From a virus: a stretch of 5,040 bases of DNA. Position numbers and translations under genes: made by a program. The DNA lies in the IMG/VR virus record IMGVR_UViG_3300045988_023854, positions 1-5,040 of that record; one strand, written 5' to 3'. The notes under the pieces are model-generated. The model was not told where the DNA came from. It did not search any database and was given only the letters and a program-made list of their open reading frames with translations. Of this stretch, positions 1 to 5,040 are shown one piece after another; the stretch's first letter is position 1, and each line of letters begins with the position of its first letter.

Positions 1-55
1 GCAGAAGTGAAGTAATCATGACGCTTCCCGCGAGGAGGACAGGCATGACCAGGTA
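1..55. repeat. Terminal direct repeat, copy 1 (circular-genome assembly overlap)
   Basis: Bases 1-55 (gcagaagtgaagtaatcatgacgcttcccgcgaggaggacaggcatgaccaggta) are identical to 4986-5040. The capsid reading frame is continuous across the implied junction (659+1069 = 1728 nt, divisible by 3). Confidence 0.95.
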
Positions 56-659
56 CTATAGTAGTACCTGCACTGAACACCCATGAAGGCTGTTCAGCAG
101 CACGGGAAGAATCCAATATTTCATTGGCGTCGCCTTTCTGGATCTTGACGGACTTCTGGAGATTTTCGTCTCTGTACCATTCGTTCCAGATCAGATAGAC
201 AGCGCGGAATGGAAGAGCATTAATGCCAGATATGTCACCAGACGTATTCACGGGTAAGCCGAAATAGTCCCATAGTGAACCTACATAATTATTATCACTG
301 TTGGCAGTAGCAGTAACAGTAGGGATGACATAATCAGTACTATCGTCAGGGTCTTCCTGCTCAAAGCAGAAGTTTTGCCAATGATCCCAAACGAGGCGGT
401 TGGGTACAAAAAAGAAAAACCAGTCCAGATAAATATTATCCATAATAGGCTTAATGGGGGTAGCGAGACGAGCGAAGTAATTGACAGACATCCTAGTAGT
501 ATCGCCAGGCAGTACTTCATCGACGAATACAGGTATGAGCTTGCCTGAATTGAAAGTCGTCTTATAGACGTGCGAGCGGTCGAATTTCGTCCGGCGCATA
601 TACATTGCAGGAGCATCGCTGAAACGATGTCCTCGAACTCTTATTTTTTTTCGAGCCAA
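1..659 (-). CDS. VP1: Major capsid protein VP1 (phiX174 F-like), N-terminal part; continues across the circular junction into 3917..4985
   Basis: Hand translation of the minus strand from 659 gives (M)ARKKIRVRGHRFSDAPAMYMRRTKFDRSHVYKTTFNSGKLIPVFVDEVLPGDT...DWFFFFVPNRLVWDHWQNFCFE...LPFRAVYLIWNEWYRDENLQ...HACPPRGKRHDYFTSALPWTQKG. There is no stop down to base 1. These are hallmark Microviridae capsid motifs. The ORF track misses this part because it runs off the window edge. Proposed start is TTG at 659-657, preceded by AAGGTGA plus 4 nt, the same SD spacing as VP3. The upstream in-frame stop is TAA at 687-685. Confidence 0.93.
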   Translation of the reverse strand, partial: MARKKIRVRGHRFSDAPAMYMRRTKFDRSHVYKTTFNSGKLIPVFVDEVLPGDTTRMSVNYFARLATPIKPIMDNIYLDWFFFFVPNRLVWDHWQNFCFEQEDPDDSTDYVIPTVTATANSDNNYVGSLWDYFGLPVNTSGDISGINALPFRAVYLIWNEWYRDENLQKSVKIQKGDANEILDSSRAAEQPSWVFSAGTTIVPGHACPPRGKRHDYFTS

Positions 660-733
660 AATTTCACCTTCTTCGAAGTGTAAACTTAATAATTAAACTA
701 AAGCAAATTATTATTAGGTTCTAGATTATTTTT

Positions 734-782
734 GCGTCACCTACGCCAGTTACATCAAGTAAGTAACTGGCTTCGGTGACGC
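734..782 (-). other. Compound stem-loop in the VP3-VP1 intergenic region; candidate viral-strand replication origin (nick site in loop)
   Basis: Outer stem is 734-741 gcgtcacc paired with 775-782 ggtgacgc (8 bp). There is a 3x3 internal loop. Inner stem is 745-753 gccagttac paired with 763-771 gtaactggc (9 bp). The 9-nt loop at 754-762 reads TTACTTGAT on the minus (viral) strand. The structure starts immediately after the VP3 stop codon (785-783). Confidence 0.6.
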
Positions 783-1265
783 CTATTTTTGTGTTTCTTC
801 ATTATTTTGTTCTAAAGTGTTACTTTTTTCTTGTGTTTGTTTACTACTTACGGACTGTTGTGGTTCATCAAAGGTATCATTGCTGCTATACAGACCTTGT
901 TGTTGGAGATATTCGAGCGTTGCAGGATCATTCAATTGATTGATGAAATTCATAGGATCGTGACCGAATTTTGCTCGAACATAAGCGGGCAGGCTGTAGA
1001 ATTCTTCACGAACTCCGGACACAAGCTCAAGCGCTGTACTGTAGTCGCCAGGGAGCGTTGCATCTCCGAACTGCAGATAAGCGTATTGCGAACTATCGCC
1101 GAGATCAAGAGTCATAATACCTTTCTGACCGTCTGCATACTTATTTACGATGTAATTGATATCAGTTTCATCTTTCTCGTCCTGAACGGCAAGAGAGGGC
1201 ATAGTAAACTCAATGCCACAATGATCATGTTCTTCTACGGGATCATAAGCTGTCTTAAATTTCAT
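783..1265 (-). CDS. VP3: Internal scaffolding protein VP3
   Basis: 160-aa ORF. ATG at 1265 is preceded by AAAGGAGGTGA (1280-1270) with a 4-nt spacer. The sequence is gokushovirus-VP3-like: DETDINYIVNKY ... FGDATLPGDYSTALELVSGVREEFYSLPAYVRAKFGHDPMNFINQLNDPATLEYLQQQGL, followed by an acidic, Q/S-rich tail. Confidence 0.85.
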   Translation of the reverse strand: MKFKTAYDPVEEHDHCGIEFTMPSLAVQDEKDETDINYIVNKYADGQKGIMTLDLGDSSQYAYLQFGDATLPGDYSTALELVSGVREEFYSLPAYVRAKFGHDPMNFINQLNDPATLEYLQQQGLYSSNDTFDEPQQSVSSKQTQEKSNTLEQNNEETQK

Positions 1266-1313
1266 ACTTTCACCTCCTTTCGCAGGCGCCTAGACGCGGC
1301 GGGCGTAGCGTAC

Positions 1314-1348
1314 AAAAAAAGGGCGATCTCCATGAGATCGTCCTTTTT
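1314..1348 (-). terminator. Bidirectional rho-independent-terminator-like hairpin between the VP5-like ORF and VP3
   Basis: 1321-1330 gggcgatctc pairs with 1334-1343 gagatcgtcc (10 bp with one G.T/A.C position, 3-nt loop). It is flanked by A7 (1314-1320) and T5 (1344-1348). On the coding strand it reads GGACGATCTC-ATG-GAGATCGCCC-TTTTTTT. Confidence 0.65.
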
Positions 1349-1365
1349 CTGATACGCTCTTTATT

Positions 1366-1394
1366 AGATTATCATTTAGTAGAATCATTGTCAA
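1366..1394 (-). promoter_or_regulatory. Sigma70-type promoter candidate P3 (upstream of the hairpin/VP3 leader)
   Basis: The minus strand reads TTGACA (1394-1389), 17 nt ending in TGA, then TAATCT (1371-1366). This is a perfect -35 with a TGn-extended TAnnnT -10. It overlaps the 3' end and TGA stop of the VP5-like ORF. Predicted start is near 1359. Confidence 0.45.
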
Positions 1395-1662
1395 CAGTCT
1401 GCACATATTCTATGGCGCGACCAACCAAGACAGGAACGTGGGACTCGTCACAATTCTCAATGTAATAGCGACCGTCGCTGTCACCGAGATTGCCAACATA
1501 ATACAAAGTAAAATCTTCAGGGTATTTTTTAATAAGCATTTTATCATCGTTAACTATACCTTCAAAAGCTCGCAGAGCAAGCAAATCATTGTGGTAAACC
1601 TGTGGAGGACTGAACTGTTCAGCCTTAGAATCATAAATGGAATAAAGTCTCAGCGGAACCAT
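1372..1662 (-). CDS. VP5-like small non-structural protein (putative; 96 aa from ATG 1662)
   Basis: The ORF reads MVPLRLYSIYDSKAEQFSPPQVYHNDLLALRAFEGIVNDDKMLIKKYPEDFTLYYVGNLGDSDGRYY.... From memory, the pattern (L-Y-x-I-Y-D-x-K-A-E-x-F, A-L-R-x-F, Y-P-E-D-F-x-L-Y-x-V/I-G) matches the small protein encoded next to rep in gokushoviruses. The start is uncertain: AAGGAG directly abuts ATG 1662, and the track's TTG 1680 has only a weak AGGT upstream. Confidence 0.75.
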   Translation of the reverse strand: MVPLRLYSIYDSKAEQFSPPQVYHNDLLALRAFEGIVNDDKMLIKKYPEDFTLYYVGNLGDSDGRYYIENCDESHVPVLVGRAIEYVQTVDNDSTK

Positions 1663-1870
1663 CTCCTTTTCTAAACGCAATTAGATACCTACGAATCATG
1701 AGATATAGCGTAGCTGATATAACATAATAGTCATTATCAAGGCGAATAACTCTAGAATCATCAGGTTTAAGGCGATAAGCGGCATATTTGCTGCCACTAA
1801 AAGAATAATTAAAAAGAATATTACGATTGTTACAGAACTTTTCAACAGCTTCAAGTTCGCGAATAAGCAT
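1631..1870 (-). CDS. Hypothetical protein, 79 aa (orphan ORF between VP4 and the VP5-like gene)
   Basis: ATG at 1870, stop TGA at 1633-1631. It fills an otherwise non-coding gap. Its first ~50 codons show the same strong T-ending codon preference as the recognised genes (CTT ATT ... GCT GTT ... TGT AAT CGT AAT ATT CTT TTT AAT TAT TCT TTT AGT). It overlaps the next gene by 32 nt. I recognise no family motif. GAGGTG abuts the ATG with zero spacing. Confidence 0.5.
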   Translation of the reverse strand: MLIRELEAVEKFCNNRNILFNYSFSGSKYAAYRLKPDDSRVIRLDNDYYVISATLYLMIRRYLIAFRKGDGSAETLFHL

Positions 1871-1878
1871 CACCTCAT

Positions 1879-1890
1879 TTCTGACTTAAT
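1879..1890. repeat. 12-bp inverted-repeat arm A (ttctgacttaat) at the P2 -10/+1 region
   Basis: It is the exact reverse complement of 2841-2852. It lies in the 30-nt gap between the VP4 stop and the orphan ORF start. Confidence 0.8.
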
Positions 1891-1917
1891 GATAACACAG
1901 TCACAATACCTTGTCAA
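1889..1917 (-). promoter_or_regulatory. Sigma70-type promoter candidate P2 (drives the orphan ORF and the VP5-like gene)
   Basis: The minus strand reads TTGACA (1917-1912), 17 nt ending in TGT, then TATCAT (1894-1889). This is a perfect -35 with a 5/6 -10 carrying a TGn extension. It overlaps the VP4 3' end and stop. Predicted start is near 1882, giving a leader of about 12 nt before ATG 1870. Confidence 0.6.
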
Positions 1918-2812
1918 GTTTTCTGCCAAGAAAATGTTTATACTTACCTTCCTGAACACGGCACCGATCAACCAAACGCTCAAAAGTATTGTTCTCCAGA
2001 TTATGAAGCATCTTCTCAATACGGTTATTACGAATAAACTCCATCCAGTGAGGATGCGTTTCATCAAATTTCTTGTCATAATAACGAGGAGGACGCATCT
2101 TCTTACCGTTAATAACAACATAATCATTGGCATAGCATTCTTCGCCATGATCTTCGAGCCATTTTGCACCTATGCCAGGACGATTAGAAGCAATCATGAA
2201 TTCAGGAATGCGACCTTTATAGTGAGAAGGAGCGTCTTTACCTGTCTGTTTTTTAACTATATAGCGAGCGACATAGGCAGCAGAATCAAAGCTAAACTCA
2301 CCAATAAGATGCATACCGTATTTCCATACTTTGGCAAAACGAGAAGAAGTATAAGTATTATAACCGTCTGTACGGAACCGAAAAACTTTGTCATCAAAAT
2401 CAATATTAAACAAAATGTAATGATAATGGGGGCGACCATAAAGTTCACCATATTCACCACAGCCGAGAAAGCGAATGCCACTGCCATACTCTCGACGAAG
2501 ATTTTTCATGAAAGTCTGATGAAATTTCTTACTTAAGCTTTTATCACGTGGCAAATGATAATCGTCGAAAGTGCAAGTAACGAAATAAGCAGAAGACGAA
2601 GAACGGGCTTCGTGAACAGCACGGACAGCCCACTGTCTACTATTTTCGAGGCGACAACCGATACATTGTTTACAAGAACAACGAATGAAACGGCTATCGC
2701 CAGCAAGCTCAGGGTGAGAGGCAAGGCTACCGTAAAAACTATAATGTTGTTTTCCATTCTTCGTAATTGCTCCTTCAACTGGATACATAAGAATAGGATT
2801 GTAACAAACCAT
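1901..2812 (-). CDS. VP4: Replication initiation protein VP4 (HUH rolling-circle endonuclease, phiX174 A-like), 303 aa
   Basis: HUH-superfamily motifs are present: AYFVTCTFDD (motif 1), RPHYHYILFN (H-u-H, motif 2) and AAYVARYIVKK (Y-x-x-x-Y, two catalytic tyrosines as in phiX174 A). There is also a CSCKQCIGCR cysteine cluster. I prefer ATG 2812, preceded by AGGTGA plus 5 nt, over the track's GTG 2821. Stop is TGA at 1903-1901. Confidence 0.93.
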   Translation of the reverse strand: MVCYNPILMYPVEGAITKNGKQHYSFYGSLASHPELAGDSRFIRCSCKQCIGCRLENSRQWAVRAVHEARSSSSAYFVTCTFDDYHLPRDKSLSKKFHQTFMKNLRREYGSGIRFLGCGEYGELYGRPHYHYILFNIDFDDKVFRFRTDGYNTYTSSRFAKVWKYGMHLIGEFSFDSAAYVARYIVKKQTGKDAPSHYKGRIPEFMIASNRPGIGAKWLEDHGEECYANDYVVINGKKMRPPRYYDKKFDETHPHWMEFIRNNRIEKMLHNLENNTFERLVDRCRVQEGKYKHFLGRKLDKVL

Positions 2813-2829
2813 ATTAATCACCTGTACCG

Positions 2830-2858
2830 ATTGTATCAGGATTAAGTCAGAATGTCAA
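2830..2858 (-). promoter_or_regulatory. Sigma70-type promoter P1 for the rep gene (VP4)
   Basis: The minus strand reads TTGACA (2858-2853), 17 nt (ttctgacttaatccTGa), then TACAAT (2835-2830). This is a perfect -35 with a 5/6 -10 carrying a TGn extension. Predicted start is near 2823, so the ~11-nt leader begins at the AGGTGA SD. Confidence 0.7.
2841..2852. repeat. 12-bp inverted-repeat arm B (attaagtcagaa) inside the P1 spacer
   Basis: It is the exact reverse complement of 1879-1890. On the coding strand it reads TTCTGACTTAAT immediately after the P1 -35 hexamer. Confidence 0.8.
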
Positions 2859-2920
2859 ATCCTAAATCCACCTCGTCCTACTCTTTTAAAATTTCTGCGA
2901 CGAGATCTGGAGGTACGCCG

Positions 2921-2961
2921 AAAAAGACGGCGAGAACCTCGTTTAGACAAGCGACGCCGTC
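2921..2961 (-). terminator. Terminator-like hairpin closing the VP3-VP1-VP2-TM ORF (structural) unit
   Basis: On the coding strand, directly after the TGA stop (2964-2962), GACGGCG (2961-2955) pairs with CGCCGTC (2932-2926). This 7-bp GC stem is followed by TTTTT (2925-2921). The 22-nt loop can partly pair internally (2939-2944 with 2949-2954), so this is a weaker terminator than 1314-1348. Confidence 0.45.
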
Positions 2962-3201
2962 TCATTTAGCATCCCTCCAAGAACCGAAAAAACGGCTAGT
3001 TTTTTTAGAATCATTCTTATTAGCAACTGGCTCAACAAGTTGCGCAACATCGGTTTGAAAATCCGAGGCAACCTTTTTAGCAGTAACAGTATTCGAAGAA
3101 GCTTTACCTTTCAGAGCTTCAATTAGATCTACAACTTCTTGAATGAATGGGACAACAACAGTGACAATGAAAGTCAGAATCATAGTAGTTTTATTAGACA
3201 T
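2962..3201 (-). CDS. Small membrane-anchored protein, 79 aa (N-terminal transmembrane helix, charged C-terminal domain); candidate lysis protein
   Basis: ATG 3201 is preceded by AAGGAG (3216-3211) with a 9-nt spacer. The SD overlaps the VP2 stop TAA (3217-3215). The protein is MSNKTTMILTFIVTVVVPFIQEVVDLIEALKGKASSNTVTAKKVASDFQTDVAQLVEPVANKNDSKKTSRFFGSWRDAK. Residues ~5-24 are hydrophobic with Pro18, and the remainder is hydrophilic (11 K/R against 8 D/E overall). The track's longer 102-aa version (start 3270) lies inside VP2 and has no SD. Confidence 0.7.
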   Translation of the reverse strand: MSNKTTMILTFIVTVVVPFIQEVVDLIEALKGKASSNTVTAKKVASDFQTDVAQLVEPVANKNDSKKTSRFFGSWRDAK

Positions 3202-3214
3202 ATTATTGCACTCC

Positions 3215-3901
3215 TTATTTGAAAATATAGCCAATACCGCGAAGGATATGACCGAGGCCTGAATTGCCAAGGCCTAAAGAGTCATAGAAATCAGCTTCCT
3301 GCTTCGAAAGACGAGCGTTCTGAACCGCGAAGCTCGCGGCAGAATTAGACTGATTAGCTGAAGCGATATTAGAGAGTATGCCAGAGCTCAGATATGATCC
3401 TTGAAGCCTGAGATTCTTCAGCTCCTGATCCATGCGCTGAAGCTCATAGCTGAGACGTTTTTCGTAAGTCTGTTCGGCCAAATTTAAATTATTAGCCTTG
3501 ATGCCGTTATCAATAACTATTCCATGGGTTGCCTGACGCGTAGAATCGGCTTCTGCGACGTTTTTATCAATTTGCGAAACTGCAAGGTGCTCGGCATTCT
3601 TCGCCTGCCGTTCAGCGGCACCAGCAGCTCTAGCAGAGTTCATGGTAGAACCGATATCACTCATACCTACTGAAGCGGCTGAAGCTCCAGATATAGAACC
3701 GCCTATACCATTGGTTGCAGCAAGAACAGGATTAAGACCAGCGGCGCGCATATCATCGACAGCCCACTGATAACGATGCTTATAGTTTTCAACGTTCCAC
3801 GCGTTAGCCTGTGCGGCGTTAGCGGAATTATAATGATTCTGAACTGCGGATCCGAGAACGGAACCAGCAATACTACCTAATGTATTAGAAAGCCATGACA
3901 T
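3215..3901 (-). CDS. VP2: Minor capsid / DNA pilot protein VP2 (phiX174 H-like role), 228 aa
   Basis: ATG 3901 is preceded by GAGAGGAG (3915-3908), which begins one base after the VP1 stop TAG (3919-3917). There is a Gly/Ser/Ala-rich N-terminus. The motif NYKHRYQWAVDDMRAAGLNPVLAA is typical of gokushovirus VP2. A coiled-coil-like central part follows (AERQAKNAEH..., YEKRLSYELQRMDQELKNLRLQ). Confidence 0.85.
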   Translation of the reverse strand: MSWLSNTLGSIAGSVLGSAVQNHYNSANAAQANAWNVENYKHRYQWAVDDMRAAGLNPVLAATNGIGGSISGASAASVGMSDIGSTMNSARAAGAAERQAKNAEHLAVSQIDKNVAEADSTRQATHGIVIDNGIKANNLNLAEQTYEKRLSYELQRMDQELKNLRLQGSYLSSGILSNIASANQSNSAASFAVQNARLSKQEADFYDSLGLGNSGLGHILRGIGYIFK

Positions 3902-3916
3902 ATAACCAACTCCTCT

Positions 3917-5040
3917 CTAGAAGTGGTCGACAAGGCCGGGTGTGCCGAACATAGGTATAGGACGCACGGTAGTATAACGGAACCCTACATCAAGAAGGAA
4001 CTCAGGCTCATCCTGAACCGCAACAATGCGCTTGATAGGTGGGTTCTCCGTAATGAATTCCTCGTTCAGAGTAGGAGCATTGTTGAAGAACTGAGACAGG
4101 TGCCATACGTCGAGATTACCACCGGATACAGAGCTACGGAATTTCCCAGTAATCTGCGAAGGTTTATAGCGATATTCGGCATAACGCTCCTGATAGCCGA
4201 AAACAGTAGTATCAGCGTCAGTACCCTGAGCATAGATCTCGCGAAGCTCAATAGCCTGTTCGCTAAGGTGGGCGAATGTCGGCCAATAGAGATCGTAGAC
4301 CGTAGAGCGAAGCCACATCTTATTGATGCCCTGCTGATAAGTAAGATCGGCACGGGCGCATACGAAGCCTATGATGTAACCATGCTCGACGAATGACTTA
4401 GTGAAACCATGGAATTTGGACGCAGTAACGCCATAAGCTGAAAGATTGCCCTGAGGAGAGGTGTTGTCGGTCGCGGAAGTCTGAGCTATTGGATTGACAT
4501 TAACCATCTTTGTGAAGGAACCTAAGAATTCAGGACGCTGCAGTCTTGCGTCAGGAGAAACCACGCCGAAGAAAGAGCGAAGCACTTCTGTATAACGGCT
4601 ACCACCGCGAGCAAGGCGTTCGTAGAACTTCTGCATCTGAAACGCAGTGCGAAGACTGTTAATCGTGAAGAGGCTGGAAGAATCCAGATCGGCGTAAGTG
4701 TTCTTGGAAAACCATGAATTACCAGAAATAGCTTTAGCAGTAGCAGTTCCTAATCCTTTTACAGAATGGCCAACTATAGTAGCGTCATAACCACCACCTT
4801 GATATTGCAAAGTACCATTAGCAGTGAAAATATCATGTACACCACCGTCTTTAGAAAGTTGAGCAGCGGCAAGGTTGCCAGTCTGTTGCTGAACAAAATA
4901 TCCAGTTATAGGCGAAGGATCAACAAGCTTAGCAGTACCAGCTAAGCCTATAGATACACCAGGACCTTTTTGAGTCCAAGGAAGCGCAGAAGTGAAGTAA
5001 TCATGACGCTTCCCGCGAGGAGGACAGGCATGACCAGGTA
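3917..5040 (-). CDS. VP1: Major capsid protein VP1, C-terminal part (4986-5040 duplicates 1-55); the whole gene is 1,728 nt / 575 aa on the circle
   Basis: The frame of ORF 3917..4810 stays open upstream to the window end: ...PGHACPPRGKRHDYFTSALPWTQKGPGVSIGLAGTAKLVDPSPITGYFVQQQTGNLAAAQLSKDGGVHDIFTANGTLQYQGGGYD.... The track's 'M' at 4810 is an internal TTG (Leu). Stop is TAG at 3919-3917. C-terminal motifs are F-protein-like (RLQRPEFLGS, NLSAYG, WHLSQ). Confidence 0.93.
   Translation of the reverse strand, partial: PGHACPPRGKRHDYFTSALPWTQKGPGVSIGLAGTAKLVDPSPITGYFVQQQTGNLAAAQLSKDGGVHDIFTANGTLQYQGGGYDATIVGHSVKGLGTATAKAISGNSWFSKNTYADLDSSSLFTINSLRTAFQMQKFYERLARGGSRYTEVLRSFFGVVSPDARLQRPEFLGSFTKMVNVNPIAQTSATDNTSPQGNLSAYGVTASKFHGFTKSFVEHGYIIGFVCARADLTYQQGINKMWLRSTVYDLYWPTFAHLSEQAIELREIYAQGTDADTTVFGYQERYAEYRYKPSQITGKFRSSVSGGNLDVWHLSQFFNNAPTLNEEFITENPPIKRIVAVQDEPEFLLDVGFRYTTVRPIPMFGTPGLVDHF
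4986..5040. repeat. Terminal direct repeat, copy 2 (circular-genome assembly overlap)
   Basis: Exact 55-nt copy of bases 1-55. This implies a circular unit length of 4,985 nt. Confidence 0.95.

Follow-up and report, generated by a model that had tools for sequence, protein, structure and literature searches.

A conserved intergenic hairpin displaying the phiX174 nick core as the probable plus-strand replication origin of gokushoviruses

The 5,040-nucleotide stretch of viral DNA analyzed here (hereafter the window; positions 1 to 5,040 of IMG/VR virus record IMGVR_UViG_3300045988_023854) is an almost complete gokushovirus genome with every gene on the minus strand, in which a compound hairpin at positions 734-782 (-) is likely to be the plus-strand (viral-strand) origin of rolling-circle replication, as are its homologs across the Gokushovirinae. 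A first-pass annotation of the window had put this hairpin forward as a candidate origin because its loop carries the seven bases of the phiX174 nick core. That candidacy is strongly supported by the comparison of related sequences, which points to a conserved loop on covarying stems, to the presence of the element in genomes held out of model building and to an agreement with the phiX174 origin that goes beyond the 7-mer. The cutting of a viral-strand origin by a phiX-type Rep protein and the existence of HUH endonuclease origins whose nick motif lies in a hairpin loop were already known; what seems new is the gokushovirus origin itself, the display of the phiX core in a hairpin, a downstream box at the phiX distance, the near-universality of the element in the subfamily and the existence of lineages in which it is inverted. 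The searchable open-access literature holds no description of a gokushovirus origin or of this motif, subscription journals lying outside that scope.

On the coding (minus) strand the element reads 5'-GCGTCACC GAA GCCAGTTAC TTACTTGAT GTAACTGGC GTA GGTGACGC-3'. Its two arms (734-753 and 763-782) are 20 nt long each, 90% complementary, and enclose a 9-nt loop (754-762). Folding of the minus strand as single-stranded DNA recovered the architecture originally described, namely an 8-bp outer stem formed by GCGTCACC (775..782) and GGTGACGC (734..741), a 3x3 internal loop containing one possible A-T pair, a 9-bp inner stem formed by GCCAGTTAC (763..771) and GTAACTGGC (745..753), and the loop TTACTTGAT. 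The folding energy of -19.7 kcal/mol compares with -5.2 +/- 2.0 kcal/mol for 200 shuffled sequences (z = -7.3), none of which equalled it. The window has a single ACTTGAT (760..754, minus strand), whose identity to the phiX174 core ACTTG/AT (the slash marking the cut) was verified in NC_001422; the predicted VP4 nick, placed by analogy with phiX174 G4305/A4306, falls between G756 and A755 (755..756, minus strand). A scan against Rfam 15 returned no family reaching its gathering score, the two matches obtained (25 and 22 bits versus 88 and 66) being at chance level.

The hairpin had been located exactly between the VP3 stop and the VP1 start. It does adjoin the VP3 stop codon (TAG, 785-783) directly; the VP1 start (TTG, 659) lies 74 nt further on, the hairpin occupying the 5' part of a 123-nt VP3-VP1 spacer. 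The description of this spacer as the largest non-coding region was not confirmed, since the VP2-VP4 gap (3214..2822) spans 393 nt, unless an unannotated 102-amino acid open reading frame (ORF) with a TTG start (3270..2962, minus strand), which overlaps the end of VP2 and occupies part of that gap, is real. This ORF had no Pfam match; an extra ORF is annotated in some GenBank relatives.

Conservation was examined at two depths. The close set consisted of 80 IMG/VR contigs with VP3 proteins 94-100% identical to that of the window, 68 of which were used to determine per-site variation. All 80 carry the element with an unchanged loop core, and 15 consecutive bases (TACTTGATGTAACTG, 761..747, minus strand) that take up the greater part of the loop and extend into the beginning of the 3' arm show no variant among the 68 contigs, with variable positions on either side; the loop motif is thus conserved among relatives with similar Rep proteins. 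Stem changes in this set include compensated ones (GCC..GGC to ACC..GGT or GAC..GTC), and the 3x3 internal loop is fully paired (TAC/GTA) in some contigs. Hardly any variation is seen in the 3' box GGTGACGC and far more in the 5' arm, the outer 5' arm (775..782) showing uncompensated variants such as GCGGCACC. This per-site variation indicates a constraint on the sequence itself in the loop, 3' arm and box, and one mainly on pairing in the 5' arm. A 14-mer from the element, ACTTGATGTAACTG, was found in at least 120 IMG/VR contigs, mostly of 4-6 kb, a count that is qualitative only as chance matches are expected in a database of this size.

Outside its own clade, the identity of the window VP4 falls straight below 60%. 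The distant set was built of whole genomes around two other Reps, P0003 and P0009, whose VP4 proteins share 32-98% identity with the query Rep P0009. Even where VP4 is only 32-55% identical, the strongest hairpin of the genome usually carries (Y)ACTTGAT in its loop on different, covarying stems, so that the comparison of relatives proposed in the first-pass annotation yielded the conserved loop and covarying stems it had looked for. When perfect hairpins were sought without regard to the motif, the longest one in many diverse genomes was ...CAGTTAC-(Y)ACTTGAT-GTAACTG..., with differing outer stems. Across hosts the arms range from 9 to 20 bp and the loop from 8 to 13 nt, and loop variants in distant relatives include ACTAGAT, CCTTGAT, TCTTGAC and CTCGTT. 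We aligned 72 distinct elements (alignment A1) collected with a seed selection in which T32, G34 and TGA were fixed, the spacing was kept within +18..+20 and a stem of at least 6 bp was required. The core CTTG(A/T)(T/C), partly fixed by that seed selection, is present in all 72, and the commonest form of the loop is TACTTGAT. The inner helix is paired in 86.8% of cases, all ten of its pairs show double-sided (compensatory) changes, and RNAalifold independently predicted the same helix. Its covariation score of 0.347 compares with 0.118 +/- 0.009 after shuffling (0 of 500 shuffles reached it) and with at most 0.109 when the partner was slid by 1-3 columns. Column frequencies indicate that the two arms of this helix differ in variability, the 3' arm (745..753) being conserved both as sequence and in its pairing and the 5' arm (763..771) mainly in its pairing.

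The outer helix of the window clade behaves differently from the inner one, being paired in only 42.5% of cases across the 72 elements. What had been treated as one compound structure is thus a widely conserved inner hairpin to which a clade-specific outer stem is added, the outer 5' arm serving as a clade-specific partner of the 3' box. Pairing of the 3' box was accordingly rejected as a general feature, an inverted copy of the box lying nearby in only 17 of the 72 elements. We also note one sub-lineage with a diverged element (L156, ~1757-1790; L160, 1197-1220; L161, 2819-2842), with a TACAGTTG/CAACTGTA stem, a loop reading CTACTTGATA or CATAGTTCATA, and TGGTCT in place of TGACAC as the box.

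A covariance model of the element (R1) matched the window at 729-786 (-) with 56 bits (E ~1e-12) and, in a set of 94 diverse gokushovirus genomes, detected a single copy in each of about 88. When applied to 76 further genomes, gathered with a different Rep (P0101) and unused in model building, it matched 74, always on the VP4-coding strand, with E values from 4e-15 to 4e-4. Among cultured phages, the Chp2 match (2895-2953, TCTACTTG/ATCTGTTATACGCTAGGTGATAGC, E 4e-4) lies between VP3 and ORF8/ORF4, and that of phiMH2K (3287-3345, CCTACTTG/TTGTAAGTAGCCGAACTCACAG, E 1e-5) directly after VP5; SpV4 has a weak match near 513-549 (ATTACTTG/TTATAATATGCCCCATTGACGAC). The presence of the same conserved sequence in phages of Chlamydia, Bdellovibrio and Spiroplasma as well as in gut and environmental lineages suggests that it is a conserved phage protein, and not a host factor, that recognizes it. 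The element also occurs in the Aravirinae-like peat-soil microvirus Fen418_41 (L297, 3701-3757) as TTCTTG/ACAT...GGTGACAC, followed by an inverted copy of the box. It is not family-wide, since four larger (5.7-6 kb), more distant microviruses, a cultured Rhizobium phage, MG945282, Dulem virus 213 and mar40 (L294, L295, L296, L298), gave no match to the model even with filters off.

The agreement with phiX174 appears to extend to a second site. The viral-strand origin of phiX174, G4 and alpha3 (Bullavirinae), a 30-nt sequence cut by protein A, belongs to the same virus family and is served by the same type of Rep, both proteins having an HUH motif and two tyrosines (YVAKY in phiX174, YVARY in the window). 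The longer two-tyrosine motif YVARYIVKK reported for the window VP4 is indeed present, together with an HYH motif and a match to Pfam PF23343. In NC_001422 the phiX174 origin reads CAACTTG/ATATTAATAACACTATAGACCAC (rep_origin feature at 4306); the ACTTG/AT core is identical in the two systems, lies on the strand of mRNA sense and accounts for 7 of the 10 bases of CAACTTG/ATA. Immediately 3' of the gokushovirus hairpin is a conserved box, (A/G)(C/G)TGACACC (RSTGACACC), which the first-pass annotation had missed and which was seen in genomes L094-L170 and L300-L375; in the window it corresponds to GGTGACGC (734..741, minus strand), a candidate Rep-binding ('key') sequence. In the form TGAC(A/G)C(C), the box lies 18-19 nt 3' of the putative nick whatever the length of the stem, the G of its GAC being at +18 in 63 of the 72 elements and at +19 in the other nine, and phiX174 has a GAC at +18..+20, the same distance from its nick G. 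The two would then have in common a bipartite layout of a cleavage core and a conserved box at a fixed distance. In phiX174, the downstream 'key' or binding part of the origin lies about 18-28 nt from the origin start, after an AT-rich spacer. This spacer is unpaired in phiX174, whereas that of gokushoviruses is the G+C-containing 3' arm of the hairpin, which places the core in a loop. The phiX174 origin further differs in lying inside gene A and in lacking an inverted repeat, and beyond the core and the GAC the two sequences match no better than chance. Saturation mutagenesis of phiX174 found synonymous changes in protein A codons Q107-D115 to be detrimental; these codons correspond to origin nucleotides 4299-4325, up to and including the GAC (D115), and cleavage occurs at G4305/A4306 through Tyr343 and Tyr347 (10.64898/2026.07.25.740675).

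The element is intergenic in all 92 occurrences, never lying in a core gene (VP4 included), and follows VP3 in 77 of the 92. Most lineages have VP4 downstream of it and the wider clade of the window has VP1, so that through two gene orders, VP3-element-VP4 and VP3-element-VP1, the element keeps its place at the 3' end of VP3. In five genomes the element and its box together are flipped with respect to the genes but occupy the usual intergenic position (L134, 2053-2110; L135, 411-447; L151, 1807-1863; L157, 2279-2336; L164, 3038-3095; all on the strand opposite the genes). L134 and L135 are sister genomes, and the normal orientation found in the nearest relatives of the inverted genomes implies that the element was flipped independently four times or more. 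With their A-rich coding strands (T-A skew -0.30 to -0.37), the inverted genomes all fall within the 7 of lowest T-A skew among the 94, and the four inverted lineages also differ from 85 normally oriented genomes when 4-fold degenerate sites in VP1, VP2 and VP4 are compared (Mann-Whitney p = 8e-4). Such tracking of skew by orientation is expected if the element decides which strand spends time single-stranded. It is conceivable, although we consider it rather doubtful, that the hairpin, as the ancestral origin of the whole subfamily, decides by its orientation which strand is packaged and that the inverted lineages (L134/L135, L151, L157 and L164) package the antisense strand. If so, a family defined as positive-sense would include negative-sense members, and the strand would have been switched repeatedly through the local flip of an origin of ~60 nt.

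From these comparisons we infer cleavage by VP4, the exact position of the nick, extrusion of a cruciform and binding of the 3' box, which together suggest the following mechanism. In the supercoiled replicative form the inverted repeat would extrude as a cruciform, and in the single-stranded product it would simply fold; either way YTACTTG/AT would be presented single-stranded in a loop. The parts recognized by VP4, a phiX174 A-like two-tyrosine HUH endonuclease, would be the loop, the sequence-conserved 3' arm (ATGTAACTG) and, 18 nt downstream, the TGAC(A/G)C box. The enzyme would then cut the minus strand between G756 and A755 and become joined to the 5' phosphate, leaving a free 3' OH to prime synthesis by a host polymerase. 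After one round, the second tyrosine would cut the regenerated site, and the displaced strand would be ligated to a circle for packaging.

A number of observations weigh against the interpretation of the hairpin as the plus-strand origin, or against parts of it. The bare 7-mer is not beyond chance, 0.9 copies of ACTTGAT being expected in 5 kb when both strands are counted; it carries weight because of its position in the loop and its conservation. The GAC shared with phiX174 at +18 amounts to 3 nt only, and allowing for a 1-nt shift such an agreement would arise by chance about once in 20; the precise cut site is assigned by analogy with phiX174. phiX174 itself gave no match to model R1, its origin being neither a hairpin nor intergenic. 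No element was detectable with the model in L114, L168, L170, L306 and L328, and it has diverged in L156, L160 and L161. The invariance of T32, G34 and TGA in the alignment and part of the spacing result follow from seed selection, a bias that the hold-out search and the motif-blind scan lessened without removing it. Phylogeny and GC content are both confounders of the association with skew, and some normally oriented genomes, including phiMH2K, are equally A-rich. Finally, complementary-strand priming is another function that a hairpin on the packaged strand could have.

This last possibility leads to the most serious rival, a complementary-strand (minus) origin at which the hairpin would recruit host primosome, primase or RNA polymerase to convert the packaged single strand to the replicative form. 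Known complementary-strand origins include the phiX174 PriA site, the G4 oric and plasmid ssoA elements, the last of which also have conserved loop motifs. The strong intergenic hairpin on the presumed packaged strand is compatible with such a role, and the inversion and skew results do not separate the two kinds of origin since both would track the packaged strand. Hairpins in small microviruses have been tentatively assigned as complementary-strand origins (PMC9865509). The conserved sequence is, however, that of the phiX174 plus-origin nick core with a box at the phiX spacing, unlike known priming signals, and the same 15-25 nt recur across very different hosts, where sites for host factors would be expected to diverge. 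To our knowledge, the minus-origin hairpin of phiX174 is not conserved in a comparable way. Overall we regard priming of the complementary strand as an unlikely primary function. Still less probable is that the hairpin acts mainly as an RNA element, be it a terminator, an attenuator or a stabilizer of the mRNA 3' end between VP3 and the next gene. In favor of such a role, it directly follows a stop codon, folds strongly as RNA too (z -5.2) and finds a parallel in the intergenic terminator hairpins of phiX174, one of which overlaps a replication signal (10.64898/2026.07.25.740675). The coding strand, however, has no U-tract; what comes after the stem is the TGACACC box or A's, the latter as had been noted for the window. 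A terminator scan passed over the hairpin and yet called 1340-1324 (-), and the genome has canonical terminators, consisting of a hairpin and a T-run, both there and at ~2908-2979 (-). The invariance of the loop, the stronger conservation of the 3' arm and the fixed distance to the box are not requirements of a terminator, and the inversion of one should not go along with strand skew across the genome. The hairpin may still have a secondary role as RNA. An antisense terminator, with its T-run on the non-coding strand, was considered and dropped, the upstream A-run being VP3 coding sequence that is unconserved in distant relatives.

The conserved sequence, the flanking box and the invariably intergenic location would also suit a binding or packaging site for another phage protein (e.g. 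VP5 or a DNA-binding protein) or a dif-like XerCD recombination site, distinct in either case from the nick site. The phiX174 origin region is also needed for packaging, and some gokushoviruses reportedly integrate through dif-like sites (Kirchberger and Ochman 2020). A dif site has a host-matched sequence, an 11-6-11 layout and no long hairpin; this architecture and the invariance of the element across hosts led us to reject the XerCD alternative. Against the wider alternative stands the specific match to a known Rep cleavage site, which leaves it as improbable as a mainly RNA-level function; packaging coupled to the origin would form part of the plus-strand origin reading rather than compete with it. 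That a chance palindrome happens to display a functionless 7-mer, itself no rarity in 5 kb, is refuted by the fold (z = -7.3) and by conservation with covariation in more than 160 genomes, and is barely worth entertaining.

GenBank relatives of the window (85-91% identity) are entries named 'Human gut gokushovirus' and Microviridae sp. from human, pig and dog feces. The 5' part of the major capsid protein gene VP1 (1..659, minus strand; Pfam Phage_F, E 3e-54) starts at TTG 659, preceded by AAGGTG, a start to which that annotated in KX513872 maps; the gene leaves the window at position 1 and continues at 5040..3917. On the same strand follow VP2 (3901..3215), the predicted rolling-circle Rep gene VP4 (1901..2821; PF23343, E 3.5e-17; 7808 homologs), a VP5-like gene (1680..1372; Phage_ORF5) and the scaffold gene VP3 (783..1265; Chlamy_scaf, E 5e-23). 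Between the last two genes lies a canonical intrinsic terminator (1324-1340, minus strand), CGATCTCATGGAGATCG then CCCTTTTTTT on the coding strand, which looks bidirectional on account of a flanking A-run (inverted repeat I3, 1313-1351). A second large, imperfect hairpin in the VP2-VP4 gap (2908-2979, minus strand; 25-nt arms, DNA fold z -3.2), with an inner stem AGACGGCG/CGCCGTCT followed by TTTTT, is terminator-like and placed after VP2; it could also be a candidate for complementary-strand priming. Two near-consensus sigma-70-like promoters, each with 11 of 12 matches and an extended TG, were found on the minus strand, TTGACA-17-TACAAT just upstream of the VP4 start (2830-2858) and TTGACA-17-TATCAT at the VP4 end (1889-1917).

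Some observations concern the contigs and hosts of the relatives. Many close-clade IMG/VR contigs (L013, L016, L024, L027, L036-L038, L053 and L066) end exactly 143 nt past the last VP3 codon, within an A8 homopolymer at the VP1 start (643-650, minus strand), probably as an artefact of assembly or linearization. Two 6.2-kb contigs carry two different elements each (L110, 264-322 and 4637-4695; L112, 71-128 and 4569-4626) along with two VP4 genes ~50% identical to each other. Their interpretation as an origin-Rep module was rejected, L112 running into a second VP5 and VP1 start and neither contig having a terminal repeat; the probable explanation is chimeric assembly at the conserved element, which may lead assemblers to join different genomes. 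The Rep P0101, 47% identical to VP4, is annotated on a 1.29-Mb contig of Phascolarctobacterium faecium, a sign that relatives of gokushoviruses are integrated in gut Negativicutes and a hint of the host range.

Gokushoviruses are among the most abundant single-stranded DNA (ssDNA) phages of gut and environmental viromes, and with the element delimited to 58 nt and its nick position predicted, the question of their origin becomes open to a simple experiment. The element would also provide a natural start coordinate for thousands of circular metagenomic genomes, a marker of the packaged strand, and the cis component of gokushovirus phagemids or vectors for hosts such as Chlamydia and gut anaerobes.

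Set against other known systems, the element resembles in its presentation the origins of CRESS-DNA viruses (circo-, gemini- and nanoviruses), in which the nonanucleotide NANTATT/AC lies in the loop; common to both is a nick motif in a loop of ~9 nt at the tip of a G+C-rich intergenic hairpin near rep. The nonanucleotide is cut between loop positions 7 and 8, and the phiX analogy would put the gokushovirus cut likewise. CRESS origins differ in their motif, in the lineage of their Rep (a single tyrosine and an SF3 helicase) and in having iterons beside the stem where the gokushovirus element has a single TGACACC box, and homology in sequence is not expected; in a search that was not exhaustive, no direct repeats were seen, and an inverted box copy within 50 nt was present in just the 17 elements mentioned above. 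Among rolling-circle plasmids, the double-strand origins of the pC194/pUB110 family have a phiX-like CTTG/ATA nick sequence and an HUH-type Rep, and the nick site of pT181-family plasmids lies in a hairpin loop or cruciform; these origins are served by plasmid Reps. The PriA-site hairpin at the complementary-strand origin of phiX174, which overlaps terminator T_F, is intergenic on the packaged strand like the gokushovirus element (10.64898/2026.07.25.740675). It is recognized by host PriA, lacks a nick motif and is not conserved in the family, whereas the gokushovirus element has the plus-origin motif. As in hairpin-loop origins at large, that motif sits in the loop of a conserved, covarying inverted repeat, with the nick predicted to fall within it. 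The element thereby ties the hairpin-less origin of phiX174 to the hairpin-loop origins of other HUH endonucleases, in what would be one cleavage core with two presentations within one family.

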